A stretch of DNA of 61,386 nt, counting the filler, from Rhabdomonas costata (lineage: Eukaryota): NCBI GenBank assembly GCA_019059605.1. It is 21 parts of 21 records of this genome, joined end to end, with 100 filler letters (N's around TTAATTAATTAA, not from the genome) between each part and the next. Parts side by side here need not be neighbours in the genome. Positions count along the whole stretch, not along the records: positions 1 to 2,838 come from JAHMHO010001951.1; 20 more parts are not named here. One strand, given 5' to 3'. This document shows, in pieces, positions 1,373-58,568 of the stretch (the first letter of the stretch is position 1; each line of letters starts with the position of its first letter). A program made the position numbers and the translations under genes. The notes under the pieces were generated by a model that saw only the letters and a program-made list of their open reading frames with translations, was not told the origin of the DNA and did no database searches.

Positions 1373-1848
1373 CAAGAGCCTGGCAGAGTTTGAACTGCCC
1401 CACAAAAGCCCGCTTCTGCGCCTCAACCGTGCACTTCGGGGAGAGCTCGGTGTAGTCTAAGCCAATTTCACCGATAGCCACAACGCAGCCGCAGCCGAGG
1501 TGAGGTTCCGCAGCAGCCACCAGCCGTTCCACACAGACGCCCGGTTCACCTGCATAAACGGAGGCAGCGCAAAAAAAAACTTGAAAGTTGAAACTTGATT
1601 GAACCCGGGTATGTTAGGAGTCCGCAAAAAACACACGCTCACAGACAGCTCGGTTTGCTTTTCGCTGTGTAAGCTTGGGATCAGGGTGGTGACGAAGTTC
1701 AATCTCCAGGGTTGACAACTCAAGGTAAGGGCCTTCAAGTTCAATTCAAACCAGAATGACCAGGGACGACAGCAGGGCAATACGGAGAGCGACGAGGAGC
1801 ACACAGAAAAGAATTATACCTCTTTTCGGTTTTGCGCAGCTACCGCAA

Positions 1849-1884
<36 letters not shown>

Positions 1885-2290
1885 CTTCAGAGAACGATTC
1901 ACCTCTTTCTTTCCAAAGGTGGGCAAGAGCTGGATGCAGCCCAACCGTGGTTTTCAACGCTGTCTGATAAGAAGGAGTGCGGCTCAAGGCGAGCGTTTGT
2001 TCGAGGGTTGGCAGATCACTCGCAAGACTCACAATTCGAGCAATACCCACTTGCTTCAACCGGGCCCACATGAGCTCAAAATCATCCGGCCGGATCCGAC
2101 TCAGAGACTCTGTGGAAGGAATCAAGGACTGAGGAGGTTCGATGGGCTGTGACTGCCGGCTGGCCTTGGAAGACTTCCCCTGTGGTTTGGGAGGGGCACG
2201 CCTCAGTCCCCGAAAGGTAGGGTCCATCAAATTTGCAGCGATGTCGATCAGAGGAATAGGTCCTGAGCGACCGGCAGCCTGCATATTCAT
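1373..2290 (-). CDS. TatD-family DNase, first two exons (2290-1903, 1549-1373); later exons not resolved
   Basis: Motifs LIDIAANLMD, TTVGLHP, VVAIGEIGLDY, AQKRAF..QF; a GT-AG intron joins the exons in frame (KER-G-EPG). Confidence 0.9.
1855..1884. repeat. (AC)n microsatellite in the TatD intron; similar tracts at about 4842-4860 and 48550-48566
   Basis: Visible dinucleotide run. Confidence 0.9.
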
Positions 2291-2405: not shown

Positions 2406-2599
2406 TTCCTGAAGTGTGTGATTGTTTTCGAGTTTCCACACACGCGAGCGCGCGCAAAGAGAAGAAAACCAAAAGGGAACTTCTTCAGCGAAACAAACCT
2501 GCACATGACACCAGTGAAGAGCGTCAGGCACAGTCGGTTTCTGTCCCCGGTACACACACAAGAACTGTACAAAATACGGTCACCCCTTTCCCCCGTCCG
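2406..2599 (+). repeat. Dispersed SL-like-headed repeat, copy A
   Basis: TTCCTGAAGTGTGTGATTGTTTTCGAGTTTCCACACACGCGAGCGCGCG...CAGCGAAACAAACC...TTTCTGTCCCCGGT, shared with copies at 9485-9689, 56832-56922, 54701-54750 and 42761-42857. Confidence 0.9.
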
Positions 2600-2838
2600 A
2601 CCTCCTCACTGAAACCTACTCGTCGGTCGCGGCCGTAGCGTTCGTTCCGCCACGGACTGGCAGACTGTGGAGGGTCAGCACCGTGGAGCTGAATCAACGC
2701 CTGGTCGCTGGCTCCGCGATCCTGGGCGGTTGAACCGCTGGTTGGTTGGGGACTCCACATCCTGGGGCGCCTCCCCCATCCTTGCGCAGTAATGCTCCTT
2801 GAAGGCGGTGGATCTTCTTTCGCCACATCCCACAACAC

Positions 2839-8045: not shown

Positions 8046-8574
8046 TGTTACGGACCCCGCTCCGCACGGGAATCCGGGGGGGCTGCTGCGCACGGGCTTC
8101 ACACCGGCGGCGAACGGGAAGCAGGCTACTCGTCTTGGCGTGGCCGCCCCGGCCGGGTCCGGAAATCGTACCCGCGACCTTGCTGCCACAAGCCCCCTGA
8201 CCACTCAGACAAAAGACCGGCCATGGGGTTTGCCATACCCCCACGCTGCGCCCTAGGACGGGGGCGCCGCCCGCGGACACCGACAGAGGGACACAGGGCA
8301 CAGGACCCGAACCAGTCTTCTACCAGATGTTACGTGCCCCGCTCCACACGGGAATCCGCGGGGGCTGCTCCGCACGGCCCCCCGGCCCACTCCGCATGGG
8401 CTTCACACCGGCGGCGGACGGGAAGCAGGAGCCAAGACGGCTACTCATCTTGGCGTGGCCGCCCCGGGTCCGGGAATCGAACCCGGGACCTTGCTGCCAC
8501 GAGCCCGGCCCCCAGACCACTCAGACAAAAGACCGGCCATGTCTGATTCCTGGTTGCCTGCGGTGTCCGTGAAA
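8046..8574 (-). mobile_element. Non-autonomous miniature LTR retrotransposon (TRIM) with tRNA-like LTRs; LTRs 8328-8574 and 8046-8235
   Basis: Two related direct repeats ending GTAACA on the minus strand; PBS-like TGGTAGAAGACTGG 2 nt after the 5' LTR; G-rich tract before the 3' LTR; 5-bp duplication AGCGC at 8041-8045 and 8575-8579; A-box TGTCTGAGTGG and B-box GGTTCGATTCC inside the LTR. Confidence 0.82.
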
Positions 8575-9484: not shown

Positions 9485-9689
9485 TGCTCCCGTCTTGAAG
9501 CGGTGACGTTGAGCGGACGGGAGGTTGGGTGGGTGACCACTTCTACAGTTCTTGTGTGGGGACCGGGGACAGAAACCTTCGCGCGCTTCTGTCGTGTAGG
9601 TTTGTTTCGCTGACGAAGTCCCCTTTGTTTTTTTGTCGTCGCGCGCTTGCGTGTGTAGAAACTCGAACGCCTTCACACACTTCAGAAAG
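9485..9689 (-). repeat. SL-like-headed repeat, copy B
   Basis: Reverse complement aligns with 2406-2599 over about 180 nt and adds a GTCACCGCTTCAAGACGGGAGCA tail. Confidence 0.9.
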
Positions 9690-11950
9690 AACGAACGGCA
9701 AACCAATGCAAACGATGAAGCGACGGGTTAAGTACAGTTCTAAACTGAAGAATGTATGTCGGAAAAACCGAACGACAACAAACCACAGGGAGGGAGGCTG
9801 GGACGGATGAAAGATATATTGAAGAGTATATTACGACCCATCGATCCCTCACTGCAGGCAAGAAATAACCCCTGGGAAAGGCTCGTGTCTGGTAGGTCCT
9901 CGGAGCAAAGCATCAAACGCTTGCCCTGTAGCAGGATTTTCGGAACTGGAGCACGTCTCACGGGGGCGGGATTACTGGAAGCCGCCCCAGGGTAAAGTTT
10001 CCACCAGTTCTCCACCTTTCCTTGTTTTGTTCATGTAAAAGGCAACGCGGCATGGCCTATGGGTGTCACTATGGTGGGCATTCACGAGCGCGCCGGACGT
10101 GAACGTGTCGAGTGCTCGAAAGTTGCTCGTATGCGCGCACGAGATTTCCGTCTTTTTCGGTTTGGTTTGGAGTTTTGGTGTCAGTATCATAATCATTTGT
10201 CTTTGCGTTTTTGCTCGCTTGCGCAGATATTCTGAATAACGAGACCCAGCGGAAGTACATTCAGGGGGTGAAGAGGTGTGCTCTTCTGCACTTTGTTTGC
10301 TGAATTGTAGGAGTGGTGGCAATGTAGCGAACGGTGTATGATTCTCATTTGGACAGTTTCTTCCACAATGGGTGCTTGCCATGGACTGTTTTCGTTTGTA
10401 TTCAGGTTGCTGACGCAAGCGCAGCGACTGTATCCCACTGACCCTTCCAAGTGCGTATGGATGTGAACACAAATGCTACTCTGCGCAATTTTACTGCGGT
10501 GCTGTAAATACACTGACAGTTTTGCCTGCCTTTGGCGGGATCTTGGTTGACTCCCCGCTGGTTTTGATCTTTGCGGAGTCTGCCGGAGTTTTGACGGTTC
10601 AGACTCGATGCCATGAGATCGAATGTATGCACCTGAGTTTATCTAAAAGTATCTAAAAACACTTTCCCTTTTCGGGTATGCCCCATATGCCCGTCAGGCG
10701 TTCATAAAATAAGCAAGCCGAAGGCGAAACCCTTACAAAAAGCACGAACGGCAGCGCACCCGCAGTCACACAGAAGGAAAAAGAGTGGGAGCCCTTCCGG
10801 GTCAAGGGATTGGGGCTGTGGGTGCCCGAAACGGTGTGCTTGTTGCGGGCCGCCGCACGGGGCCATGTGTGTCGGTACTGTTCCGTCCGCTCTGGTCATT
10901 CCACTTGCACCCCCCTGCCTTGGGCCAAGGTGCGCTAGTTGCGGGGAAGGGTGACGCCGTCGGCGCCACGCAGACCAACAACGAGGACCGGGAGCATTTC
11001 CCAATGATTTCCCCATTTCTGAAACCCGATCGACCGACGTTCTCTTTTTGAGCGCCGCGATTTGGTGCAAAGAAAATGGCGCTAGAAAAGAGGAGGCTTC
11101 CAATTCCCATCCTCCTCAATGGTCATGGGGATGCCCTCGTTTTTTTTTGGATTTGATATAAAAATAAGGATAGGAACGCAAGAGAGTTGGGGTTTTTGTC
11201 TTTCAAGGTCAAGGAAAAATCGCGGCTTCTATTTGCCCGCCAGCCTCTCCTTGAAGTTTTACTCCCTTAAATTCGGGTCTTTCCCCCTCCCCTTTGCATT
11301 TGACGCTTTTCGCCCATATAATGGGTTGGAACCTACCCTTTGGGCGCCAAAAAACGCGGAAATGGGGGAAAAAATGAAGAAGGGATGCTGCGAGTATCCC
11401 GGCCAAGCATCAATTGACGTAACACCCAGGACCGACATATTCACAATTTGCCCCCGTGCCACGTTCGACCAGGATACATTTATCTTTGCTGCCACTCAGA
11501 TCGTCTTTTGGACGTTTGGGAATCAGTGGTATTTTTCAGGTGCTCAGATTTTGGGTGCCGTGGTGAAGACGATCTCAGAAATCATTTGTGCCAATAAAGT
11601 TCCCGTCACACATGGGACCAAAAAACNNNNNNNNNNNNNNNNNNNNNNNNNNNNNNNNNNNNNNNNNNNNTTAATTAATTAANNNNNNNNNNNNNNNNNN
11701 NNNNNNNNNNNNNNNNNNNNNNNNNNGGTTGTTTTTGGGACGCCGCCCCAATGATGGGTACGCCATTTCAAAAGAAATAAGCTTTATGTTCTTCGTTCTC
11801 TCTCTCTGTGTGTGGCAGTTCTGTTTCGTTCGTGCAGTAATTACAGTGCTGACCCATGTTGCAGCAGAAGTGCCGTGGTCCTCCAACTTGAAAAATAATA
11901 AATAACAGATAAATTGCCCCAATAAAATTAATAAACAATAATGATGATAC

Positions 11951-12570
11951 ATCGTTGCTGGCACACCGGCGTAGAGGTGGGCGGACGGTGTGCCAGCCTA
12001 CAGTTCTTTCTCTTATCAGTATACAGGCCTGCAAAGGACCAAAAAGGGCCCTTGCAAGCCTGTATATATGCAAAAAGGGCTCAAAAACAACCCAAAATGG
12101 TCCTTAAATGGCATCATGCGTGGCGCTAAACCGAGCAATCCGGCCCACTCCGGTGCCAGCATGAAGTACTCCTGGGCTCTACCCTTATGTATGGTAAGCA
12201 GGCCCGGCCGAAAGCTTAGGCTCAGTATGCAGGCCTGCAAAGAATTAAAAAGGGCGCTTGCAAGCCCAGGTAAAGGCAGAAAGACCACAGAATAAATCGT
12301 TGCTGGCACACCGGCGTGCAGGTGGGCGGACGGTGCGCCAGCCTACAATTCTTTCTCTTATCAAAACCAAAGCCCGAGCAAAAGCAAGGGTGAAAAGGTC
12401 CTTGCAAGCCTGTGAAAAGGCAAAAAAAAAGGGCTCAGAAATATGGCCCTAAAATGGCCTCTGGTGTGGCCGGAAACACAAGCTTCCGGCCCACTCCGCT
12501 GCCAGCAGGAAGTACTCTTGGGCTTTACACTTATCCTAAGCAAGCCCGACCGAAAGCTTGGCTCAGCATG
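11951..12570. repeat. Two diverged tandem units (period ~346 bp) rich in inverted repeats
   Basis: ATCGTTGCTGGCACACCGGCGT... at 11951 and 12297; TCCGGCCCACTCCG...GCCAGCA at 12139 and 12486. Confidence 0.88.
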
Positions 12571-14657: not shown

Positions 14658-14769
14658 AAAAAGAGCATAAACTCACCAGGAACAAACTTTGTGTGAAATT
14701 GCGCAGTATGGGTTCGACCAACCTGGTGGAAAAGGCGCAAACCGTGACAGGGAGCCTCACTTGCGTTGC
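14658..14769 (+). repeat. 112-bp exact terminal direct repeat (also 17376-17487); the contig is a 2718-bp cycle
   Basis: Identical sequence at both ends of the contig. Confidence 0.97.
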
Positions 14770-15080: not shown

Positions 15081-15942
15081 CTGGAATCGAGTTAGAAGAT
15101 CTACAGCTGTGTATTCATCCATTGACGCAAGCTTGGCGTAACACTGCGCATTCAGAAAGTCCTCCTGGATGGCTCCAGTCTGCGCAAATGAAATATTCCC
15201 CCCTCCTAACCCACATACACCCTTTTGTCTAACACAACTATGCTGGAAAAAAGCAGCACCCAGAATGCAAAAGTAAAGTGCACTGTAGTTCACCCCCTCC
15301 GCAACCCAAAGCAGACGATGGCCACAATGTGAGGGTTTACGTGTTTCTCTGGCGTTCCACCATCCCCCGTTTCGCTATTGCACCTCCACAAGAGCTCGTG
15401 GAGGGGGTGGAAGATGAACGGAGGGAGGACGGACGGACGGACGGATTCTCACCTGCACCAGTGTGTCAATCTTCACCTTCACGGCGAAGGTCAGGCCACC
15501 GTGGGGACCTGCGACGGGCCATGACATGGAAGAGGTCAGGGTGGTTGACGATGACGACGACGGTGCTGTCCGCCCTGGGTTGGCATACCTTTTGCAGATA
15601 CCTGCGAGAAAGTAGAGGCCACTGGAGCGAAAAGTGTGATATTTGGGGATTTATCACAAGTGTTGACCTTGAAGAAGCAAATCTGACCGATGGAGTGTGG
15701 CCAGGAAAGCAGAAGGGCATCCCAGTGCGGCATTAGGAACCACGACCTTGAACTTTCATGAAAAGGATGGGGGTACGCCCTTAGAGCGACAGAGGTGTGG
15801 AAGCACGGGCGCATTGTGCATATGGTACAGCCTGGTGTACCATACCGATCAGGAACCCCCTCCTGTTGCGAATGGTGGAGAGGTCTGCCTCCTCGTATTT
15901 GCCCAAGATCTCGCAAGCCACTGCCTCCCCGAACTCAGCCAG
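15081..15942 (-). CDS. Protein with tandem hnRNP-Q acidic-like domains; exons 15942-15846, 15601-15453, 15179-15081
   Basis: LAEFGEAVACEILGKYEEADLSTIRNRRGFLIG-ICKRY...GLTFAVKVKIDTLVQ-TGAIQEDFLNAQCYAKLASMDEYTAVDLLTRFQ; phase-consistent GT-AG introns; resembles the hnRNP Q/R N-terminal acidic domain. Confidence 0.75.
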
Positions 15943-17122
15943 CTATGCGTTCGGGAAAAATGTAATCAACAAATTCCTGCACACACCAGCACAGATGGAC
16001 GAGGCGCGTAGCACATGGCCGCTTGCTTCGGGGTTTCGGCCCCACTCCTCTCTCAGCATCCCTTCCAATCAGTCCCTCCCCTCCCCTCGTCTTGTCCCCT
16101 GTTCCTGCTGCTGGTTTATATTGACTAATTTTGCGAATTGGAAAATCATTACATATCACGCACACTGAATGAGAAAGGGTGCCAGGCTCCTCTAATGAAA
16201 AACAAACACGGGATATTCCAATGGAGTGGCAGTGACATTGACGTACAGACAATTTTCGGTAAAATGTCGTGCTTTGACCATGCGTTGAGCGAAAGAAAGG
16301 TTGAGGCAGGGTTGAAAAAGCGAGATCCCAAGCGAGAACATTTGCATCTGATGAATTTTAGGTTGGAGGCAACGATAATTTCTCGGCCAAATCGCCGAAG
16401 GAGAAGCATGATACCAACGGCGGAAGCAATTAGTAACGCAAAAAAGGCCGCGGTATACGTGAAAACCAAAAATGGAATGGAGACAAAAGACCACAAGTCA
16501 AACAAAACATGAGGCTACCAGAAAGTTGGCCCAAGATATTGCCATTGTTTCTTTGCAAAAATTTCCCGCGTTGTACTCTTTCCAAAACCATCCAAAATCA
16601 AGAATCCAGAGCACCCACATGAATCCCAAATGATTTTTATTTAGCCGCGGCCCCAGTGAACGGGCCAATATTTCAGGAAACAATCTCTGTTTTTTGAGAC
16701 GTCCGTTCGGGTTTGCCTATCATTATTTTCAGGACGAATGACAAGGGCCCCAACAAGAACCAGGGGCAGCACGCAAACAACACAATCCCTTCCTCCTACG
16801 CGTTTTTCCTTCCTTTGCCTCCAACCTGTTGCTTTTTTGGGGGCCCTCCGTTCCCTTATTGCTTTCGTTCCCCGGGCCCCGATTTTCTGCGCCATTTGTT
16901 CGCTTTGCTCTTTGGGGTCCATTGCGTGTGCGTTGCGGCCTTGCCCAAAGTGTTTAGCGTTTCGTAGGGCGTGTTTCTCTTATGGAACGCGCTTGGTGAA
17001 ATCCATTCGGCTCGAAACGCGGCAACCCATAAAGCCAGATTTGTTCCATGGCTGGTGGCTTTGTTCCGGCGTTCTCGTTTTTGACGTTTCGCTTCATGAA
17101 AACGGGCGGGAACTGGCCATTA

Positions 17123-17311
17123 TCAACGGCACAAGATTTCGCGCTGGAAAAATACCGCAATCCCCCCACCTCCAAAAAAAGCAGCCATCTCTCTATGCCC
17201 TAGAAGACCTGGGGCTGAAGCTTGAAAATAATGAGCAGGATGAGGGGAAAGAGTGGTAGCCATGCCCAAGAAGAAGGCAGGCTTGTCTTGCACTTGGGAG
17301 AGATCCGCCGC
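17123..17311 (-). CDS. Next (possibly last) exon of the acidic-domain gene, reached by wrapping across the contig ends
   Basis: TAG acceptor then AADLSQVQDKPAFFLGM, which completes the domain begun in exon 15179-15081 in phase 0; open to TGA at 17123. Confidence 0.68.
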   Translation of the reverse strand, partial: AADLSQVQDKPAFFLGMATTLSPHPAHYFQASAPGLLGHREMAAFFGGGGIAVFFQREILCR

Positions 17312-17588
17312 CTATGAGATCCACCACAATCCATTAAGCGCGCTCCTCCAAACCGGCAACTGAGTACTGGCCATCAAAAAGAGCATAAACTCACCAGGAA
17401 CAAACTTTGTGTGAAATTGCGCAGTATGGGTTCGACCAACCTGGTGGAAAAGGCGCAAACCGTGACAGGGAGCCTCACTTGCGTTGCNNNNNNNNNNNNN
17501 NNNNNNNNNNNNNNNNNNNNNNNNNNNNNNNTTAATTAATTAANNNNNNNNNNNNNNNNNNNNNNNNNNNNNNNNNNNNNNNNNNNNG

Positions 17589-23460: not shown

Positions 23461-25450
23461 CAATGTTGCGCTTCTCCCTCACATACTCCCCCATGAGCCA
23501 CTCGTTAAGCTCAATGACACTATTGCGGTCGTTGGCATCCTCGATCTTCATGATTAGGTCTCCGGTGCAGTAGGCGGGAATGTCCGCGAAGTGCCTGAAA
23601 GGTGAGCACAAACAGGACCCAGGATACCAGGCTGAAGGAAAGCCAAATCTTCGTTGCTCAAAGCAACAGCACGGGTTTAAAAGCAAACGGTCCACCTGAA
23701 GGTCTAAACACCACTGTTATGTTGAGGTTCGACGGGTGTCCCGCAGCAGAAAGCGAAAAATACAAAGCACAGAAGCATAGCACGCTAGCAGGAAAGCGAT
23801 ATACAAAATGGGAACAATAAATGCAGAGAAATTCTGGAGACGCGCTCTAACCTGAGCTCACTAGTAGAATGGGGAACGGTGAGTGGGGACATCAGAAGCC
23901 CCAGAAACATCAAGCAGCCTTGGTGAAAGGTGAGGGGACGAGTGGGAGAACACGAGGGAAGAGGGACATAGAGCAGTCTTTCAGAAGAGACGGAAGCTCA
24001 AATATGGCTACTATATGCAGGTTTTGTTCCCACAGACAAAGTTCCCCTGAGTCCCCTTTGCTTTTTTGCTTGGTCTCGTGCGCGCTTGAGTAAAAGAAAG
24101 AGCAACCATCACAGAAAAAGAAGTTGAGTATGGCAGGCCGCGAGTGAACTGACCAAGCTTTTGGGGGGAGGAATCCCCCGGTCTGCTTCAAAAACCATCG
24201 CAACAAACAGATCTATTATACATGCGAAAAAACTGGTTGTGGAACAATGCGAAGAGTACAGGGTAGCAGAAGGGGGAGGGGGGGGGCAAACAAACATACT
24301 TGGAGATTAGATGCTGCTTCAGGGCACAGAGCTCTTTGTACATGCTGGTATTGATGCGGTCGATGATATTCTGCCTTCGGGCAAACTGATCCCCGCCCCA
24401 AAGAAAGGAAAACAGGTGCGGCGATAGCGGGCAAACATGAAGGGAGGTTACAAGTATGGCTATTAAAAGCAGCGAAGGCAGTGCTAGAAGTGTGAGCTGC
24501 CGTCAGTTCAAGCTGGTATTTCAATTTACCAGTTCCAAAATTTTGGTAACCACAGCGCTAGAGCACCGTGCATTTTTTGTATTGTATAATCGTATCGCAT
24601 TGTATGCCTGTGCGGCAAAAAAAATTCCATTTCCACTTCCGGCTCAATCCTGTGCCCGCATGAAGTGGATCTGCTGAGCAGGCCAGGCCGAAAATTCATT
24701 TTTTCATTGTCCATAATTTGCGACCCCAGGCCCTTTAATTTTCTAGCTCGAACAGACCCCAACAAAAGGCATTAAAACCTCAAGGGAGAAAATAGCCTCC
24801 AACCCAACCTGTCACTCTAGTTCGAGTTTTGAGGTCAAGTTAGCTCTCCGGTCCGATACGGTCCGGTCTCGTCCGGGAGTGATCACGAGGGAACGGGTTA
24901 ACGTTTTCGGCCGAGACAAGTGGTACCCCCATTTCCGGCAAGGTCTCTGACACTGGTAAGACCGAGGTCGGCTGAAGAGATCAGACACAGGGAAGGACCA
25001 GGGACACAAACACCATGTCAAGTTAAATGCTCTACATCACCCTTTTCCGTCACAGAATTCATATTTTCATACGAAGAAGTGGGCCCAAGTGGGATGAATT
25101 TATCTGAACATTCTCGCAGCGGGCATTGCAGTGGGCAGCAACTTATCATCAGAGTCTCGGACTGTTCCCAAAAGCTGAACTGGCGGAGGCTCGGGTCGTC
25201 ATGTGTAAGGAAGGATGCACCCACACATTCCCCTTGTAAATGTCCCGCTCGTTGGCCAGCGCCATTGCAGCGGCCTGGCACTCGGAGTGATTGGCGGGCA
25301 GGGTGTCGGAGACTGAAGTGCATGTGCTGCTCTTGCGAGAGGTCCCGCTGGACGCCGCCGAGACGCCCTTCCCATTGCCATTAGAAGATTTCGGCCTCTG
25401 GGGGTTCCTCTGGGGGTCGGAGAGGATTTTTGAGCGGGACACCTGGACTA
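23461..25450 (-). CDS. Unknown protein, partial; exons ~25450-25225, ~24374-24300, ~23595-23461
   Basis: Phase-consistent splicing gives ALANERDIYKGNV-QNIIDRINTSMYKELCALKQHLISK-HFADIPAYCTGDLIMKIEDAND; boundaries approximate. Confidence 0.6.
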
Positions 25451-27796
25451 CCGCCTGTTTAGGGCGGGAATAGTCGATGCAACAAAACCGCAGAGTTTGG
25501 CGTTGGGGCGCTTGGGGACTTTGATGGGGATGCTTGTCAAAACCAGTCCATATGTAGGGGACACCACGAAGTGGTGCGCGCTTCATGTTTAAAAAGCATT
25601 AAGTCGTTTAGCATCTCAAAAAAATGCAGTTAGCCTCACAATGACGTAACACCAGCAACACTCGTTGGGGGAAAAAAGTCGAGTGGACGGCAAGGTTCGC
25701 AGAAATCCCCCAAAACAGGAGCCAAAGCAGGAGTTTGGAAAGAGAAAAATGGTTAGCAAGCATCATGCCGCATTAGCACAAAATATCGAGCTTCATGACG
25801 TCAAAAGACATCGCCATATCCATATGCGTGTCGGGCACAAATCTACTCGCGCGCACCTTGAGATCCAGTGCACTCATCGTAGAGGAATTTACATCAGACG
25901 CTCATCATGCGAAAGAAAGAACACTGCAGCAAGGAATGCGACCGGAAGTGAACAACGTGCTGGCACATCCTGGAAACCTGGAGGTGATTTTCAGTGAAAA
26001 GGACAGGATGAGTGGCTTGAAAGGGAACTAGTACTGCAACGATGTTTGAGGTCTTGCCATAAGTGTTGTAGCTATAGGCTAAAGCAGTGCCACAACAGGT
26101 ATCCGGTAATCCCGCCCAGGTTGCAGATATCAGCAAAGCAAGCAATGCCCAATTTATTGATGCGTGTGAGTGTTTTGGGTGCATTGCGCGCTGGCTGTTG
26201 CCTTGATTGATTGTTGGTGACCACTGTGGACTGAAGGGCGCACGCGCTGTTGGCCACAGTGGTCACCCAAAAAANNNNNNNNNNNNNNNNNNNNNNNNNN
26301 NNNNNNNNNNNNNNNNNNTTAATTAATTAANNNNNNNNNNNNNNNNNNNNNNNNNNNNNNNNNNNNNNNNNNNNTGTGGTGGGTACAGTCATGATTCGCT
26401 TTTTTGAAAGGAGGGAGGGAGGGGGGTTGGTTTGGTCGCGCTATTGTTCTGCAATAAGCTGCCGCCCGGGATGTTTCGGCGTTTTGTCCGTCGGCTATAG
26501 GGCTAGCCACGGGACCAGGTATCGGGTTTTGTAGGATAGGTACGAGCGAAAAAAAACTGACTGAAGGTGTAGTTTGTACATTGCTGCCTGGTCAATTCTT
26601 CTTGCTCTCCCCCTCTGCCTCTGTTGCTGCTGCACCATTCCTGGATTCCCCCTCAATTGTGCCTGTGCCACACGGGCCATGCTGGGGATGGGGGCCCAGG
26701 TTGCGTCGTTCGCAGTCAGAAGGGTGTGTGCTTTTTTGTGTCTGCAGTCATCTCTTTTCATGCTTTCCGGGTCGTGGTGTTGTGCCGAGTGCTTTGGGTG
26801 ACCATCTGACGTCGTCATTTGGCACCGGGTCACCGACGGTTGCCTGGCGGGCGTCCGCGACTCACACTCCTGCGTGCAGTGTCCCATTCACCGGCCCTGC
26901 CCATTGTGAGCGGTGCTTTTCCCTTGCCTTGAGTGTGTCAGACACACTTCTCAGTGCTTCAGTTGCTTCAACTGGAAGGGATCCTTTAGGAGGTCTCTTC
27001 TTTTTGTGGTGTCTCGAGGTTCTCATGTGAGAGTTTGGGTGCGCATGTGAGTTCGTCACGGGCACTCGACGACCGCTTGGCGGGTCATACTTCGGCACCT
27101 TTTTGTGCGAAGTGAATGTGGTTTCGGCTTGATAAAGGCTGGGGAAGGTTTACAGCCGCTGTCTAATTTCTTGCCTTCACATTCCAATTTAAGTGCTCTT
27201 CATGCCCCAAATTAGGCGATTCCTGGATATTCTTCAGTGTCAGTATTTTTATGTAATGCTGGTGATAGTGGGGAAGATTTCGGTTGGTCCCTCGGTGTTT
27301 TGTTCGCATAAATGAGAGGGATGAAGAAAAGTCACGTCAGCCTTTCCCCTCGCTCTTTCTGATTGTTGAGGGCGCCATGCCCTGTTAGCACATTTCACCA
27401 CAGTGGCAAACATTGTTCTTCGGGTTTGAGGTCTGCTGGCCAAGGGTAAGATCAGTCTTGTGTTTACGAGCCAATTTTGAACTTGCGCAAACTATTCACA
27501 ACTCCACTCGCATTCGTGGTCGTTCTCTGCGCTATGCTGACGGGCATGACATTTCGTGACATTGGTATTGTTCCGATCAAAAAAAGAAATTGAGAAATTT
27601 GGAATATAGGAATCGTCTGTGTGAGCGTTGCCCCAGCTGGATGTGTGGTCTGATGAGTTCAGAAAAAAAGAGTGAATAGATATTTCCCCGCTATTTCCAG
27701 ATAATTGTTTGGGGTACCCCCCCAGCTGAGTATGTTGCCGAGCGGAAACTTGCTGTTCGCCATGGTTGTATGGGTAGCCTGCACGGAAGCTCACAG

Positions 27797-29202
27797 TTCG
27801 GTCGCTGTACTTTGAGTCCCATGGCCGCAATGATATGCGGCAGTGGCCCGCAGATGGGAAGAAGGGGGCACGGTATATCAAGATCGACTTTAATTTTCAG
27901 TCGGACCCGTGGACCTGTGCTCACCAAGAGCGGCTGTTGGCCCAAGTTCCCGACTCTTCCCTGCCCCCTCAGGAGCTGTTCCCCAACGGTTGCTTTCTCC
28001 TCACTCACTCGTACTGCAACGAGTCAGTTCATTTGAACACCACCGCTGATTTGTTGGCGCAACTTGTTGGCCTGGTCTGGACATCACCGCATCAAAGCCC
28101 TTCCTTGGTCCTTCAGTTGTGCTTTAAGAATAAGCCTCTTCTCTGTTCACAGAACGATACTGCAGCGCCGAAATGGCTCGCTCTTCTGGACGAATTTTAC
28201 GCAAGTGCCACGAAGGCTGTGGCTGGATTGGGGCCGAATGTTGCGTTTGTGCTGGACACGTTGGAATGGACTGAGGGGTGCGTTGTTGGGCGATGGCCGA
28301 AGTGGGCCTCGACCTGGACTGGTGAGAACACGACGGCGGCGTTTACTAGCGCCGCCTTGATGGTCAATATGGAATGGGAGAGCCCAGTGTGGAGGATGAT
28401 CGTGAGAGGTGCGTATCGATGGGCGATCGAATCTCCATTCGCGTACGTTGGCTGGGAACCTGCCCTGCAATCTCGTTTGGAGATCTTCTTCTCTCCGTTC
28501 CTGAATGATTCCACACCCGTTCACAGAGCGGGAGTGATTTCGGCCTACAATGGAGATCCCAGTATGTTTCACGTCTTTACCGCCAATCTTACTGGGCAGC
28601 ACAGCAATTTTCCGGTGGGTAGTTCGAATACCAAGGGATCGTTTTCGACGTACGTTGACGCGTGGGGTGTGCTAATTGTCTGCAGTGTGTTGCGGCAAGG
28701 AGCCATGAAGACAACAATAGAATGTACAGCGCTCGCACGGGGACAGAATGCAAGGTTCGACCCTGTCAGCGACTCGTCCATGTTCAGAGTCCATGGGCTT
28801 CCAACTGTGCTGAGCGTACTTGCCATGCCAACCACGGCGGATGACCACAGATCTTGGAGCAGAACCTCTCTTGTATTAGCTGGTGGCCGTGCAGTGTACG
28901 TTTTGACCGTGACCTGCAGTGGCTTCTTCCGAGGCACGCCCTCCTGGTGTCGCTTTGCTGACTCACGAAGCGTACCTCGGAGGGTGTTCTGGACTGTCGA
29001 TGTAAAAAGGTATCTGGTCGATGTCGGGTTGTGCAATGCAAACCCAGCCAGCCCTGTGGAGTTTTATGCCGTTTCCGGGCGAATTTCCCGCCATCCACCA
29101 CACGCATTGTTCGTGAACATATGGAAGGTGAACATAGGTATCTTGTCTTTCCATTCGGTTGTTAGTGACGTTATGATGACCCGCAATGCATTTGGGAATT
29201 CA
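27797..29202 (+). CDS. Large exon (>460 aa) of an uncharacterised protein, possibly with a PLC-like phosphodiesterase N-terminal domain
   Basis: 1.4-kb open frame after a CAG acceptor; SHGRND...KGARYIKID...GCFLLTH spacing recalls GDPD/PI-PLC-like folds (weak). Confidence 0.7.
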
Positions 29203-32544: not shown

Positions 32545-34880
32545 ATGGCAACCTTTTCGGAGCTTCGGGCACAGCTCCAGCAGCGCAAGCTTCAGCACTA
32601 CTCCGCCTTGCTGCGCGCCCAGCCCGGCGACCCCGTGTGCACGGCCTGGTTTGACCTCGTCGTACTGACCGCGGGAGACGCCTCCCAAGCGGCCCACTTT
32701 GAACACACTCTGGCCGAGCTCCTGCGGCAGGGCAGGCTGCCTGCTGCCCCCCGGTATGTGGTTCTGGGCGACCCCCCGGGGGTCCGGGTGGGGTGTGGGG
32801 GCTCCACGCTGAGGGTGTTGCAACACCTGGAGAGGGAGCTGGGGCGGCCAGAGCTGCTGCGGAGGAAGGTCCTTCTGATCCACGCAGGTTGGTGAGTGCG
32901 TGTATCTTCTTTTCTTTCGTTGCTTTGCTTTTGCACCATTCTCAGACTGTGGACCTGACGAAGCTTTTGCTGTTTTTGTGCTTTTTCTTGGGTGGTGTTA
33001 ACGTCCAATAAAAAGGAAACCTGTTTCTCAATTTTCGTACAACTTTTTCACCTTAATGGATAGAAAATCGCCCCGTTTCTACGGGGTTTTATCAAGGAAC
33101 CGCTGCTTGTGATGCAATTCCAACCCAGCGCTCACGCTTTTGTGGTGCATTTTATGTTCTTATGTTTTCTTCCAAATTCCTGCAATCGCGAGTCTGCCAT
33201 GGGGCTTCAACAGGTCGCGGGCGCTCATTCAATCATCATAGCAAGTCTGTGATGAAAATCCCTTTTTCTCTTTGACACACACAAACTAACATTCACCACG
33301 AGTCCGACATGACTTAGCCAGACAACACATCGCCGCATCCTTGTGCCATTCTCATGCCGTGCATGTGCGACAGTCACCCAACCTCACCCGTGCTGCAGGG
33401 GGGTACAGCAAGCGGCTGCCGCACCACAGCATCAGCGGGAAGATCTTCGCCACGGTCCCCCTGGAGCTTCCCAGGGCCTCGCCTTCAACCGCCCGACCTG
33501 TCCTGGCGACCATGCTGGAGGTAAAGCTGGTGATGCTTGCGGAGCTCCCCCCGAGACTGCCGCCAGGGGTCTTCCTGACTTGCTCCGATGATATCGTTCT
33601 GTTTGACGGCTCGGGGGATGACCTGAGAAGCTGCCAGGGCTTTGCCGCGCTGGGACACCCCTCTACGCTGGAAATCGGTCTTCCGTTCATCACCTTTTGC
33701 CTTGTGAAGGGATGGTCGCGTCTTTGTTTGAGGGATGCCCACCATTGTGCGTCCTCATGGGGAAGTTGAATCGGTTCTCTTAGAGTACACAGCAAAACGC
33801 ACACGCCAGCTGAGAACGCGAGGGGTATATTTGATGGGGATGGCTTCCGCTCCTCATATAGTGCGATTCATGTCAAAAGTGAGAGCTCTGACACCAAAAT
33901 TAAACACTTGCCTTGACAAAGGAAAAAAGCGACAGGTTCAGAAGGAACCAAAAGTGTTTTTATGTGCCTTTTAGTTTTAGGAATAATTTCTCAGTTTGCA
34001 GTTTTAAAGGTGAAGCAAACAACATTTTCGATTCGTTCATCTTGTCGAAAGGGGACTGCGGTGTGGCCTCCCGCCAATGGAGCAAGACCTGGAATCGAGA
34101 GTTCCGTTTCCAGCAAAAAAAAAAGGTTTTCGGTTGGGTTTCTGCTTTATCTAAGACTGCTTTATTTAAGACTGCAGGCCCCAATGGTTTCAACGGTTCG
34201 TGGGAAGGGAGGGGACGGGTGGTTTGTCACGCTTGTACAGGAACTGGCCACGGGGTGTTTGTCCTGCCCCCCACCCCCAGCGGCGTTTCGGGAAGTAGTC
34301 CCTCTCCTGGAGTGGTCCCATGCCTTCGGTTCCTGCACAAGCCCTCTCGCGAGGAGATGCGTGCTCAGGGCGCGGTGGTGGCGCTGCCAAGCAACGGCGC
34401 TGAAGACGCAGGGCACAGGTTGTTTGCCCCCCCCCCTCCCGATGCCATTTTCTTTGCGGACTTGCACTTGCGTGGTATTGTTGCTTCAAACCAGAAGATT
34501 AAAAGAAGGATGACTGCTGTTTTTTTTTTTTGAAGAGCTTCCTTTTGTTGGCCCCGCGTTTTCGATGCTTGCTAACTTGAGTTGAGTGCCTCCCGCCCCC
34601 TTGCAGTTGTTGTCATCCTTCTCACGCGCCATATCTCAGGCAGACCCATCGTGCCCCTCCTCCTATATAGTCTCCAAATGGCGAGGGGATCGCTCTTGCG
34701 TGATCTTATCGGCCTGCCCTCCTACTCTTGGGGTTGGATCGGATTCTTTCTCCCTTTCATTTGCTGCTGTGTGTTAGGGGGGAGGAAGGCGTGTACACGG
34801 ACAGCGCGTTCTTTTGGGGCTCCGCCGTCACCCCGAGGCTTCTGGAGGCAGCAGTGCTTCTGGGAGAGCTCCAGGGCGAG
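32545..34880 (+). CDS. Fucose-1-phosphate guanylyltransferase / fucokinase-family protein; exons 32545-32887, 33399-33677, 34241-34418, 34778-34880
   Basis: FDLVVLTA, DPPGVRVGCGGST, LLIHAGGYSKRLP..S..GKIF, GTGHGVF, FLHKPS, VYTDS. Confidence 0.9.
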
Positions 34881-42542: not shown

Positions 42543-42760
42543 CAGAGTCCTAGCCAAAGCGGCAGAGGCAGTAGTGGTAGCAGCAGGGGTTCCTCGACTC
42601 GGGTTCGAATGGTGGAGGAGTGCTTTGCAGAACAGAGGGAAAGGGGAAACAACCCTGCGAAGTGGGAAATTAAGGGGATGAGATTCCGGCGGTTGCCGAA
42701 AACAAATATTTGGGATGAGGGCCTGGAATGTGTTCTTTTACTGTTGTGGTTGCTTTTTCG

Positions 42761-42857
42761 TCTTCAGTAGAACCAAAACCTGCAGGCCACCCCTTTCCCG
42801 CCCAACACCTTACAAACTCCTACTACTACTCACAGTCACCGCCTCCAGGCGGGAGCA
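42761..42857 (+). repeat. Degenerate, internally deleted copy E of the SL-like-headed repeat
   Basis: TCTTCAG..AAAACCTGCA, CACCCCTTTCCC and GTCACCGCCTCCAGGCGGGAGCA occur in the same order as in copies A and B. Confidence 0.6.
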
Positions 42858-49829: not shown

Positions 49830-50660
49830 TCTCTATTAGGTATTCGTTTTGGGTACACGTAGGCTTATGCTTAGGTTTGTAGGTGGTGGGTGGGTAGTGT
49901 TTATGTGTGTATCCTGAGTTGGCATCCTGAGGTGGTAGGGTATGTGCGTAAGGTGTAGTGGTAGGGGTAGAGTGCATGTGGTATCCTTTGGTAGGCGTAG
50001 GTGGGTAGGTGGTGGGCTTAGGCTGAGGCATCCTGGGTGGTAGTGGGCGTATCCTGTGTGGGTTCTGAGGGAGTGTGGTGTGGTTGTCATGGAGGTTAGA
50101 GGCTGAGGGGAAGGGTATTCTGGTGGATGTGGGCTTAGGCATCTAGGGGTGGCAGGGTCTTGGCATTCATGGGTAGTAGGGTTGTCATGCTGAGGGTAGG
50201 GTGGTAGGGTTAGTGGTACGTAGGGGTGATCACGTAGTGTGCACCCCGTAGTAGGTAGACATCTGGTGCACCATGGGGGCGTATGGGGGTTATAGTCTTA
50301 AGGGTAGTATTTTTACCCCTTGGGTATTTGGGTTTCGAATTCTGGGTTCTGGATTTGGGTATTCGGTATTCGGGGTTCTGGTCTTGGTATTCGTGGTTCG
50401 TTTTTCGGTATTCGGTATTCGGGGTTCTGAATTCGGGGTTGGTATTTAGGGGTTTTGGATTCGAGGGGTTTGGTATTTGGGGTTGGTCTTTGTATTCGGT
50501 GTTAGGGTATTGGATGTTGGTATTTAGTGCTCCCAAGTAGAGGATTTTAGTGAGTCGGGTTTTCTGCCTTTGGGTTTGGGTTTTTTGTGTCGGGGTTTTT
50601 CTTCGGAGGTTGGGTTCTTGCCTTCGGTATTCGTATTCGCCTTCGGTATTCTCATGGATT
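49830..50660 (+). repeat. G/T-skewed degenerate tandem array; ~7-nt units (GGTATTC, GGGTTCT, GGGTTTT) from about 50320
   Basis: Visible periodicity and strong strand skew. Confidence 0.8.
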
Positions 50661-53482: not shown

Positions 53483-54700
53483 GCGTTCACTCCTTCTGCC
53501 GTCCAGATCCTATCAAAACATTTCCCTGCCACGCATCGGAGCTGCTGAAAAGGCAAGCACTTTCACTGTCTACATCGGCTGACTTCCGGAAGTGCGGTGG
53601 AGCAGTAACCTTCAGTCATTCGTTTTGTTGGCCTGTTGACCTTTTCGGAAGTCACGAAAAGGAAATGTGTGCTTTTTTTTTTTGCTCTTTTTAAACATTT
53701 CCTTATTTTGCAAATGAGCTAAATGGATGCCCGTTTTATTCCATTGCCCTCACTCTGCAATGAAATGTCTACTCCTCTCCCTTTTACTGCGTGACTATCC
53801 CGTTTCATATCTATTATTTCTGATGGATGAATCTGCCTTTGCTTTCCCTATCATACGTGCAACTTGTGGATGGTTCCTACTCTAACTCGTTTTCTGATTC
53901 TGGTACACAACACGACAAGGAAGGAACGGGAGGAGCAACTTCCACTCCCACGCCCGAAAGGCGATACACAAAAACAAAGAAAACAACCGGATAGCGGTCT
54001 GCTCTCGGGTACCTGGGGGTCAATTTGCGGGGTGGGTTCCGGCCCTTCCTTCCTTCATCTTCCGCCCAGCATCAAGGATTCACCAGAACAACTTCAAACC
54101 AGGTTTTGTGAAGCACAGTACAGTCACATTCATTCCGTGGACGCCCTGGCTTCAAAGGAGCTGGGCGAACAACGAACACCCAATCCATAGGAAATGCGAA
54201 AGTATCCGAGTAAAAGGTACAACACTCTGTGACTGTGACAACAACACGGACCAGCCCCTCCCATCCGAGATGGAACCCACGCGGAAGGAAGGAGTGCGGA
54301 AAATCTCTACTCACAATGTATCGTTCTTTAATTATCGAAAAAGGTGCCCACACAGTAAACGCATGCTATTTTGTGCGTGTCTCGCATTAGTGTACGATTG
54401 GAAACCCGATGAGTGATGAGTGAGCGTGAGCGCGCCGTGTGCGGAGTGTCTGTTGTTGTGCGCGGTGAAAATGCATGAAGAATCAAAAACAGCTTCCATC
54501 ATATGACTGACAACACCCTCCCCGCCAGCAAAGCCCGGGAGTTCCACCCTCGATTTTGGCGATTCATGAAGAATCAAAAGACTCTGAGATGAGGAGCGCT
54601 GCCAATTGTTTTTTATGATAGGCAGCTTAACAACCAGTCGCTAGGCGTTCCTCTCTTGCTGCACAGATTTAGATTACTTGACGTTCTTTGATTTTGGTGG

Positions 54701-54750
54701 TTTCTGAGGTGTGTTATTGTTTTCGAGTTTCCACACTCGCGAGTGCGTGC
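54701..54750 (+). repeat. Head-only copy D of the SL-like repeat, 24 nt upstream of an ATG
   Basis: TTTCTGAGGTGTGTTATTGTTTTCGAGTTTCCACACTCGCGAGTGCG. Confidence 0.78.
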
Positions 54751-54774
54751 GTTTGGCTGGTTTTCTGCCACTAA

Positions 54775-55538
54775 ATGTCAGGTAAAGGGAGTCGATGGGG
54801 AAACCCAAAGGACGAGATGAAGAAGGCGCAACCAAAGAAACCGCAGATGGCTGAAGATGAAGAGGACGTCAAGAAGAAGAAAAAGGAGGTCGCCAAGAAG
54901 GGGCGCCGGCGCGGAGATGACAGTGAAAGTGACGACCGAAAGGGAAAAGCTCGCGGAGATACGAAGCCTGCGCAGCCTGCAGCTTCCGCGGATGCCGGTC
55001 GGAAGGGCAAGCCTGCCAAGCCTGCTGAAAAGAAGGCTGGTGGAGGCCGCGAGGATGACAGTGACGAGGGTGCAGCGAGAAAGAAGGGTGCAAAGCCCCC
55101 CCTGAAGAGCTCGAAAGCCGCCAAAGGAGACTCCGAGTCAGGAAGCGAAGATAGCACGGAGGCTCGGAAGAAGAGGCAGAAGGAGAGATCAAAGGCAGCT
55201 CGCGGCGACAGCGATGATGATGACAGCGGCGAGGAGGAGAAGGAGGAAGTGCCCAGGGGTCGCAAAGGGAATGAAAAACAATCAAAAGCTGCTCCCTCCA
55301 AGAAAGACAAGGGTAAAGGCGATGAAGAAGAAAGTGAAGTCAGCTCTGATGCAGGCGCGAAAAAACGAGCGTCCAAGAAATCTTCACAGGCTGCTAAGCG
55401 CACGAGCGACGACGATGAAGAAGAAGAGGAGGTGGCGCGCAAAACCAAATTGCCGCCAAAGAAAGCAGCTGTCCGCGGAAGGAAAGATGAGTCAGAGGAA
55501 GATGATGAGGATGAAGGCAAGGGTCGCAAAACAAACCC
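54775..55538 (+). CDS. N-terminus of a Lys/Asp/Glu-rich low-complexity protein, truncated by the contig end
   Basis: Open frame of about 254 codons from ATG with alternating basic and acidic DSD/SEE blocks. Confidence 0.8.
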
Positions 55539-55934: not shown

Positions 55935-56831
55935 TGTCCTGCACATCACCTAATAATAATTTTCCCTCTTAAAAATTAGACAAAACTCTCAAACGTGTGA
56001 CCCCAGCAACACTTGCAATAAGCAATGTAACCAATGAAATGAAGCATTAACGGCCGGAAACAAAAGATGAAAGGAAACCCTGTTGCGTCATTTTTTCGTC
56101 CGCTTTGATAGTTCGTGCGTAATCGCTGTTCTCCTTCTGCTTATGCTCTGAATCTATTTTGTGCCAATGCTGCTTTTTGTGCACAACTTAGTTGGTATAC
56201 AACTTCGATTTTTTATTTTTTTTGAACGGATTTTTATAAAGCTGTGAATGTCTGCTTTGGGCAAGCCATATCGGAAACCGTTGCAAACAATCATTAAGAT
56301 CAGCACTCTACCCACTGGTTTCGAAGAAATGATCGAAGAAATAATAGAAGAAAAAACACCCGTAAATTAGTACAAAACCGGCATGTTATGACTCCTTCCC
56401 GTGGCCCTCCCTTGCCCCAATGCCGCAGTCGCCATTTGTGCAAGGGTTTTTTACGACAGAACTGGCCACACCTAAACGAACGACAAACGTATGTAGCATT
56501 GAAATCCTGGAAAGGTGGGTGCACCACATGGGCACCGCAACTCCGGTATGGTACCAGAAAGGGACAATATGCCTTGATTGGCGTGCCCCACAACACAACC
56601 TCTCCGGAGCAGCAACGTGTCTTCCACCACAATACTGCCCTTCGTTTTTCTTTTGCTCTGGGGAATTTCCATCATTAGGATTTGTAGAGTATATTTCTTT
56701 GTAAAGGCAAATAGACTTTCCCAACTTAAACTTTCCCATTTAAGGTTTGCGACGTGCCTTTTCGTCCACGGAGCGGCGGATCGTGCTGGAGGAGCGCCCG
56801 AAGCGTCTGCGCCATAAACGTGGGTGCGATT

Positions 56832-56922
56832 TTTGTTTCGCTGCAGAAGTCCCCCTTTGGTTTTCTTGTCTTCGCGCGCGCTCGCGTGTGTGGAAACTCG
56901 AAAACAATCACACACTTCAGAA
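56832..56922 (-). repeat. SL-like-headed repeat, copy C
   Basis: Near-identical to 2406-2497 in reverse complement. Confidence 0.92.
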
Positions 56923-58568
56923 CGTATAATGAACCGTCGTGGCTTCTTCTTCTCTTCTTCTTCTGCCTCTGCTGCCTTGGGCTGCTTCTGGGGGTTATTC
57001 GGCTTCTTAGGCTTCGTGTTCCGACTCTTCCTTATGAGGCCCTTGTCGCAATCACGGCGCCGGTCAACGGGACCAAAAAAAACTGCCTTTATCCATTTCA
57101 ATTTCGTCTGGGCTTCCCATTTGCCAACAAACTTGTCCAAGAATACCGAAAAAAAACGGGCACCCCGATGACACCAGCCCTCGTCCGACTCAAGGGGAGC
57201 AATGGGCACCCCGATTCTCGGAACCAGGCCGGTTTTCGACATCCTCAAAAAGGAGTTTACTCCAGAAGATTTTGTCGAAGTAATGCCGCTGCGTATCAAA
57301 GGTCAGAAGAGAGATTATTAGATCTCGCAGGTGGTTACTATGAGTTGTACCTGGAGGGGAGGTCCGGTGGGGGAACCGTAGGTTCCATCCACGGGAACTT
57401 GTTTCGTGTTACACAGCTCTTTACCATGTTTACTGTTGATGATCTGATTGCGCTTTGCTCTGATCAAGATGCTTTAAACAACATCTCACCCCTTGCCCCT
57501 GGAATGCGATGATCGTGGTAGGGTTACGCATCAGGTTAGGAACAGCAGGGTATTGGTATTCTGTCTTCACCCCATGGCAACATCACCACTTCACCACTAT
57601 CACACTCGAAGGTGGGATGGGTGCCCTTGACAGAGAGCAAGACATGACAACACAGGGTAAGGAAGGCATTGAGGTGAGGATGACACCAAGAGGAGGAAGT
57701 TTGACGTTTCATGTCGGGCTCGGAGCCCTCCACTACGCGTAACTCCCAACATCAGGGTCAACGCATCACCCGGTCTGCCAAAAACACGACCTGGGATGTC
57801 ACGCCTTGACCACCAATGGCATCACAACATCCACACCCAGTCACTGGACTCACACGGTTGGTACACCGATGCCAAGGGAAGAGGATGCCATGACACCACC
57901 AATGTGAGAAGAGACGAAGTGACACCATGCTACTACCACAAGCGCCACCACACAGACGAATGGTTTACGGGGTTGTGACACCACTACCTTAGTACAGTGT
58001 AGGATGTTGGGCCCTCGCTGGGTTGCCAACATTGCCACTACCACCTGATAATCACCAATAACGTCACTCCAACGGTAGGAGCACACACAGATGGTTAGAC
58101 AGCCAATGCCTAGCACTCGATGGATAACCACCACCGAAGGAGGAACTCTGCCGTTGACCACCACCGGATGATAACAGCATGACAACACCTACGCACAGAC
58201 TAACCCACCTGCTGCATGTGGTGCTGTAACGTAAGGGTAGCCGATGCCACTACCACCACATGACATTGAGGTTTGGTGGTCAAAACATGCACGCTTTCTG
58301 AGCACAGAGTGCTAGATCAAACGATGGTACAATCATTCGAAAGCATGATCAATTAACGACCCCCTGAGCTCCTATTCAAAATCAAACGAGAGCAAAATAC
58401 CATTTTCTGGCCTTCAGAAACCGCACTAGAAGATCCCCCACAGTTTCTCCAGAGGTTGCCGNNNNNNNNNNNNNNNNNNNNNNNNNNNNNNNNNNNNNNN
58501 NNNNNTTAATTAATTAANNNNNNNNNNNNNNNNNNNNNNNNNNNNNNNNNNNNNNNNNNNNGGTGTGT

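Follow-up and report, generated by a model that had tools for sequence, protein, structure and literature searches.

Why should a repeat scattered through the draft genome of Rhabdomonas costata start, in copy after copy, with bases that call to mind the spliced leader (SL) of euglenids, and does the resemblance betray its ancestry or mislead as to which end of the unit comes first? The window in which the question arises, i.e. the whole stretch of DNA that was analysed, is 61,386 bases long and comprises 21 contigs of 2823–2838 bp each with N/TTAATTAATTAA spacers between them, ~58.6 kb of it being non-N sequence, with a GC content of ~0.46–0.54 per 2-kb segment. An excerpt of PMC8219788 describes the R. 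costata draft as very fragmented, with a largest contig of 8 kb and 51.6% GC, a picture with which the look of the window agrees, though that is no proof. The genes of the window are broken into short exons and, since these go together with an intron that could be placed and with many small contigs, the DNA is that of an intron-rich eukaryote in a highly fragmented assembly.

Six copies of the repeat, A to F, lie on six contigs. The five that a preliminary description of this DNA had reported all exist: A (2406–2599, plus strand, 194 nt), B (9485–9689, minus strand, ~204 nt and apparently full length), D (54701–54751, plus strand, 51 nt, made up of the head and 26 nt only) and E (56825–56923, minus strand, ~98 nt) are recovered by BLAST and nhmmer, and C (42736–42857, plus strand), which is diverged and has two internal deletions, by a chained alignment. 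To these is added a newly found and diverged sixth, F (approximately 24013–24121, minus strand, ~110 nt), for which a model of A, B, D and E that leaves F out gives E=0.0011. The leader-like head of the repeat is TTTCTGAAGTGTGTGATTGTTTTCG; it occupies 2406–2430 in A, where GTGTGTG stands at 2414–2420 and CACACAC at 2437–2443. With up to 3 mismatches the head string occurs at 2407–2430 (+), 54702–54725 (+) and 56899–56922 (−), and none of 100 shuffles contains any match. BLAST identities are 94% over 89 nt for A and E, 90% over 50 nt for D and E and just 77% over 168 nt for A and B, even though a 16-nt block, GGTTTCTGTCCCCGGT, is identical in the last pair. The head of B is diverged in its 3′ half.

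Copy C deserves separate comment. BLAST with A or B does not detect it and the A/B/D/E model gives it only E=6, while an alignment chained to A, with long gaps made cheap, scores 45.1, which 0 of 1000 shuffles reach and which compares with a 99th percentile of 35 for random segments of the window. Because its four collinear blocks, namely the head (here TTTTACTGTTGTGGTTGCTTTTTCG), TCTTCAG..CCTGCA, GGYCACCCCTTTCCC and the terminal GC hairpin, score beyond all shuffles, C is a true, if diverged, member of the family. At E<0.3 the window holds no additional copies, including none that keeps the far part without the head. Degenerate head patterns together with the conserved block GGTTTCTGTCCCCGGT... 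had 0 matches in metagenome, viral and prokaryote genome contigs, the translated element used as a probe for ORFs called across other copies found nothing, and the open literature has no report of the head string, its one match there being an unrelated fungal SSR primer.

The two ends of the unit behave quite differently. In all six copies similarity sets in no more than a few bases from TT(T/C)CTGA, and the 100 nt upstream, aligned at the head, have no motif common to the six; the sharp start that had been described is thus borne out, with unrelated flanks in every case. Having no upstream motif in common, these are therefore transposed copies and not genes with a conserved promoter. The head end is kept in 6/6, and it is the far end that varies, at 51 nt in D, ~98 in E, ~110 in F, 194 in A and ~204 in B and C, which share an endpoint: the far end of B is a GC hairpin followed by GGGAGCA, and both B and C reach ...GTCACCGCYTCMAGRCGGGAGCA and diverge directly beyond. 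The unit accordingly has two defined termini ~204 nt apart, and every shortened copy retains the head terminus. No inverted copy of the head is present at the far end or elsewhere in the window, nor is there a terminal inverted repeat. Two other classes of element were considered and set aside, a MITE since the terminal inverted repeat is absent, and a solo LTR since similarity begins 4 nt ahead of TG.

Just outside the constant end there is some further regularity. An extra (G/C)TTC stands directly outside the start in B, C and F, and more generally an in-phase NTYC unit lies just outside the last head unit in four of the six copies (A, B, C and F), with two such units in B, where GTTC GTTC precedes TTTC. 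The arrangement, outside units first, is CTCC-TTCC in A, GTTC-GTTC-TTTC in B, GTTC-TTTTAC in C and CTTC-TTTTTC in F. Across the window NTYC occurs at a frequency of 0.037, and the binomial probability of its occurring in at least four of six copies is 2.6e-5, for a pattern that was picked after seeing the data. Read on the opposite strand, the same units amount to a short tail of GAAN repeats, (GAAN)n, the length of which varies. Poly(A) is absent there, and the truncated ends likewise show no A-rich tails.

Do target-site duplications flank the copies? They were sought by comparing 23 nt around the head start with 25 nt around the end of homology, the null being 5000 random pairs of sites in the window. 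The preliminary description had seen none; that stands for B (p=0.76), E (5 nt, p=0.33) and F (p=0.11), where nothing is significant, and gives way to candidates at A and D. For A this is ACCTCCT at 2400–2406 and 2600–2606 (+), with p=0.033 under the position-constrained null, and for D it is TTTGGTGG at 54693–54700 and TTTGGCTGG at 54752–54760 (+), with p=0.010. Both sit exactly at the ends of homology, D being a 51-nt insert between direct repeats, and the right-hand repeat of D runs on into TTTTCTG (54761–54767), which matches the first bases of the head, TTTCTG, a microhomology of 6–7 nt. Without position limits none of the candidates is significant, that of A being matched by 432 of 1000 shuffles. 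With two of the five copies tested (A, B, D, E and F) in support and three not, the duplications are suggestive only.

Target-primed reverse transcription begins at the 3′ end of an RNA and often fails to arrive at its 5′ end, and the copies to which it gives rise share the 3′ end. Since the end shared here is the head, the RNA is more naturally taken to be the strand opposite to it; a constant 3′ end with variable 5′ truncation fits 6/6 copies only if that is so. The reading that we favour, with a probability of roughly 45%, is accordingly that the family is a short, SINE-sized non-autonomous non-LTR retroposon of ~204 nt whose RNA is the strand opposite the head. The family, its one constant and one variable end, the additional units and the candidate duplications are observations; the choice of RNA strand and of enzyme, and the manner of priming, that we now set out are inferred. 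The 3′ end of the RNA would read ...GUGUGUGGAAACUCGAAAACAAUCACACACUUCA and then have one, two or three units of GAAN type. From there, at a nicked target whose own 3′ end may anneal to the RNA tail, a reverse transcriptase provided in trans would begin to copy, and early cessation of copying would yield 5′-truncated copies that keep the tail and have short target-site duplications on either side. The microhomology at D (TTTCTG / TTTTCTG) would be the kind of trace expected of target priming on the RNA tail. What had looked like a spliced-leader head would then be the reverse complement of a 3′ tail, with its likeness to the leader due to chance or to a cause not yet seen, and a partner LINE would be expected to have the 3′ end ...CACACTTCA(GAAN)n.

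The absence of a shared upstream promoter and of a terminal inverted repeat, and the difference between B and C beyond ...GGGAGCA, speak for the retroposon; what weighs against it is that no partner LINE or pol III features are seen, that the hairpin is no stabler than shuffles and that there are six copies only. Neither a reverse transcriptase nor an endonuclease domain turned up in the 49 ORFs scanned with Pfam, about one-third of the 150 of at least 110 amino acids (the two lists were drawn slightly differently). No tRNA was found, and by eye no A/B-box-like promoter was seen on the opposite strand of the element. Runs of T4–T7 are present inside the element on both strands; such runs would stop RNA polymerase III. 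As to the description of the repeat as structured, the 7-bp pairing of GTGTGTG with CACACAC does exist and appears in most of the six predicted folds of 55 nt, but neither strand gives folds stabler than those of dinucleotide shuffles (z from −0.75 to +1.53), and across three sequences the stem is invariant except for one GC-to-GU change, with no compensatory pair to attest covariation. The description thus lacks support.

How good, then, is the likeness to the leader, which the retroposon reading must put down to coincidence? An excerpt of PMC3621762 gives the 28-nt Eutreptiella leader as ACACUUUCUGAGUGUCUAUUUUUUUUCG and states that E. gracilis has the identical sequence, and the Euglena sequence that the preliminary description had put forward agrees with it; the R. 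costata leader appears in the excerpt of PMC8219788 as ACATTACTGGGTGTAATCATTTTTTCG. The head agrees with the Euglena/Eutreptiella leader at 20/24 positions plus one indel, sharing, in unchanged order, TTTCTGA, GTGT and a run of T closed by CG, so that the resemblance first proposed holds against the sequences as these excerpts of PMC3621762 and PMC8219788 give them. It differs in that the head is identical to neither ACACUUUCUGAGUGUCUAUUUUUUUUCG nor ACATTACTGGGTGTAATCATTTTTTCG and in that the head of B has no T-run; heads also vary among themselves, B having 4 changes and C and F many. The likeness starts at base 5 of the 28-nt form, with a C residue at the base-4 position in four of the six copies.

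When leader bases 5–28 were aligned semi-globally at every position of both strands (~117,000 positions), D scored 14, A and E 12 each, B 6 and F 4. The background at score 12 consists of one further separately listed site (27574), the tally being 4 positions at 12, and several background sites score 10–11. Composition-matched shuffles of the heads reach the scores of the three best copies 0, 0 and 1 times in 5000; the head of C is nearer to the R. costata leader, its score of 9 being reached by 12 of 5000 shuffles. The heads are the window's best matches to both published leaders, neither of which is itself present in the window at up to 3 mismatches. As a matter of sequence the likeness is real, and improbable at any one site chosen in advance. 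It was spotted post hoc and is meaningful only if the host is a euglenid. Allowing for the ends, strands and leaders tried, the retroposon reading requires a coincidence of roughly 1e-3. A 10-mer at 56089–56098 that equals the 3′ end of the R. costata leader was discarded, ~0.1 chance matches being expected and its upstream bases scoring low, and no listing of further euglenid leaders was found in the open literature.

That the likeness is something other than chance we hold to be doubtful: either the family would derive from an SL-RNA-type small RNA of a euglenid, with copying halted at modified cap-proximal bases, or a 3′ tail would have evolved antisense to the leader, for example as a leftover from a time when the element targeted, or was primed on, the DNA of leader genes.

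The first of these deserves to be spelled out, for among the rivals it survives best. Read in the direction of the head, the copies would be retro-pseudogenes, or a SINE, from an SL-RNA-type small nuclear RNA, an abundant RNA of ~204 nt with a leader-like 5′ end, a possible donor at CGA|GUUUCC in the loop of a 5′ hairpin and a 3′ terminal hairpin. Reverse transcription would proceed as far as the modified bases next to the cap, and the product would be inserted, in many cases shortened at the 3′ side. Mammalian snRNA pseudogenes of the classical 3′-truncated type, with direct repeats on either side, arise in this manner. The resemblance to the leader itself, its start at base 5 and the C residue before it would suit such an origin, as would the endpoint common to B and C, 5 nt past the GC hairpin, and the identity of GGTTTCTGTCCCCGGT between A and B, elsewhere 77% alike. 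So too would the sequence that follows the head, AGTTTC(C/T)ACAC in A, B, D and E just as had been described: AG does stand directly after the leader-equivalent CG, but GT comes one base on (CGA|GTTTCC) in these four copies, not in C or F, and the caveat that AG and not GT follows the head is softer than it was made out to be.

Nevertheless an origin from SL RNA, or from a trans-spliced transcript, is disfavoured, because the head end is constant and the far end truncated, the reverse of what target-primed reverse transcription leads one to expect for an RNA with the head at its 5′ end, and because the NTYC units and the microhomology are at the head end and there is neither an Sm site nor an Rfam match. 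Of the earlier proposal of a dispersed retroposed family built from SL RNA or from a trans-spliced transcript, it is the first half that stands: the copies, on six contigs, begin sharply at a shared end, have no flanking sequence in common and are in part truncated, and candidate target-site duplications adjoin two of them. An Sm-type site, AAU3-6GG/U in the consensus quoted in PMC6053224, was not seen by eye in A or B, in agreement with the earlier caveat on this point. Rfam has no match at gathering score across the window, and at E≤10 around A and B, on both strands, it returns noise only. Moreover, the truncated ends are without A-rich tails, nothing in such an origin accounts for the extra GTTC GTTC of B, neither published leader is identical with the head and the element is about twice as long as a typical SL RNA. 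On balance we regard descent from an SL-RNA-type molecule as unlikely. That any copy is a functional SL RNA gene was rejected, as the copies share no promoter, have no Sm site and have decayed differently.

Improbable, by comparison with the foregoing, is that the repeat is a gene-proximal regulatory or 5′-UTR sequence spread at the DNA level, or the end of a so far unrecognised element, a DNA transposon or one like a Helitron. The company that the copies keep is what commends it: A, C, D and E are within ~200 nt of likely gene starts, A being 115 nt from the ATG of a TatD-like gene (2290–2288), which is oriented away from the head, C ~190 nt from an in-frame Met of a minus-strand ORF, and D and E just upstream of ATGs. 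But apart from the TatD-like case none of these gene calls is more than an ORF, with no protein family to back it; the flanks have nothing in common up to the very edge of the repeat and D is an insert between candidate direct repeats. Nor is there any inverted copy of the head or terminal repeat in the window, which tells against a DNA-transposon end, a possibility that the preliminary description had raised.

Weaker still than the small-RNA version, because a single body follows all the heads and the heads differ, and in our estimation very improbable, is the notion of retrocopies of one SL-capped trans-spliced transcript to which the leader was re-added in each RNA generation, for though the head is leader-like, AG- after it would fit any body joined at an acceptor and D and E lie ~30 and ~25 nt upstream of same-strand ATGs, one body of 26–180 nt and not a variety of gene bodies stands behind every head, neither poly(A) nor a run rich in A marks the 3′ end, the truncation is at the far end, the heads are unlike one another to the extent given above and both published leaders are missing from the window at up to 3 mismatches.

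By anatomy the repeat is a short non-autonomous retroposon, and it is instructive to set it beside known systems. SINEs of the stringent type, and short retroposons derived from LINEs, depend for their mobilisation on a particular 3′ end that bears a stem-loop and a tail of short tandem units. With them the repeat has in common a length of ~200 nt, dispersal, one constant terminus, variable truncation at the other, apparent short tandem units at the constant one, microhomology at a junction and candidate target-site duplications of 7–16 nt; it differs in that no partner LINE, no tRNA-, 5S- or 7SL-like head and no pol III boxes are seen, in that its stem is no stabler than shuffles and in that the reverse complement of its tail is leader-like. 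The retro-pseudogenes of human U1, U2, U3 and 7SK are 3′-truncated with direct repeats on either side, and the repeat, if read in the direction of its head, would be like them in that its 5′ end is complete, its 3′ end varies and candidate direct repeats adjoin it; unlike them it has no Sm-type site and its density, six in ~58.6 kb, is far higher. Other Euglenozoa have retroposons associated with the leader gene or with the flanks of genes, among them SLACS, CZAR and CRE, which reside in SL RNA genes, and SIRE, SIDER and RIME/NARTc. By description only, the repeat may be likened to these as a short non-autonomous element, abundant near genes, in a trans-splicing lineage, but it is inserted outside SL RNA genes and has no poly(A) tail.

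Dinoflagellates furnish another comparison, the known parallel of the proposal that the repeat is a retrocopied trans-spliced transcript. According to excerpts of PMC5585692, PMC6050394 and PMC12014239, the genomic retrogenes of these organisms have relicts of the leader at their 5′ ends that are a mark of retroposition. The repeat shares with them, as so described, a leader-like genomic sequence of the sort taken to mark retroposition in a trans-splicing organism; the dinoflagellate relicts, again as those excerpts present them, precede many gene bodies and come from polyadenylated mRNAs, whereas the repeat has one non-coding body. Varied gene bodies with a trace of poly(A) were not found in the six copies.

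What hangs on the choice? If the repeat is an ordinary retroposon, it is one more abundant short one, in a protist-like genome with little annotation, useful for repeat masking and in explaining the fragmentation of the assembly. Were its origin in the leader, the trans-splicing machinery would be tied to genome-wide retroposition outside dinoflagellates, SL RNA would be added to the few small RNAs from which SINEs have arisen, and there would be a genomic marker with which to date retroposition in euglenids; were SL RNA itself the ancestor, no SINE or retro-pseudogene family before this one would have been founded on a spliced-leader RNA.

Several features of the DNA around the copies merit a record of their own. 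Pfam matches in the window comprise the start of an SNF2 gene, a TatD-like exon, an M16 exon, a C-terminal RtcB exon and two pieces of a fucose pyrophosphorylase. The TatD-like DNase is represented by its first exon (1817–2290, minus strand; PF01026 at 16.2 bits, which is below cut-off, with atlas matches to TatD clusters at 0.91–0.92); it has an insertion of ~50 residues, and the ORF enters a (GT)n/(CA)n microsatellite at 1844–1892, where an intron probably starts. The M16 exon is of the insulinase type, with no euglenozoan chain among its matches to solved structures. The fucose-pyrophosphorylase-like gene (33290–34530, plus strand) has two exons joined as ...LEIG|TGHGVF, and the intron between them (33678–34240), the sole one placed by homology, is ordinary GT–AG, so that it supplies no euglenid-type marker.

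Two open frames are of a different sort. One, of 475 codons (27778–29202, plus strand), is unbroken to the end of its contig and has six relatives in public data, of 713–756 amino acids and 36–46% identity; it has no Pfam domain, and atlas leads, also with one of the relatives as the query, are only weak and PI-PLC-like (0.77–0.83). As it appears intron-less within an otherwise intron-rich window, contamination or gene transfer may account for it. Homology comparisons of this frame, of the TatD-like exon and of the M16 exon singled out no lineage. The other, rich in Lys, Glu, Asp and Ser (54775–55538, plus strand, 254 codons), starts ~25–30 nt downstream of copy D and also reaches the contig end; both strands are open there and its coding status is uncertain.

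Other repeats in the window are of more local character. The contig at 14658–17487 has terminal 112-nt stretches (14658–14769 and 17376–17487) that are 100% identical and on that account it may represent a circle of 2718 bp or a single unit from a tandem array; two of its ORFs (15233–15733 and 16660–17256) have no Pfam match. At 8046–8541 multiple blocks are in direct repeat with a spacing of 282–316 nt, and by eye a T-arm motif resembling GGTTCGA can be made out among them, in minus-strand orientation, with no tRNA found there by ARAGORN and nothing in Rfam at E≤1. Multiple repeat blocks of 77–93% identity are spaced at 206 and 345 nt in 11947–12534, and a 122-nt pair, 98% identical with 158 nt between its members, stands at the start of the last contig (58562–58841). 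Finally, a G/T-rich tandem array of ~3–4 copies with a period of 21–28 nt occupies 50340–50440.
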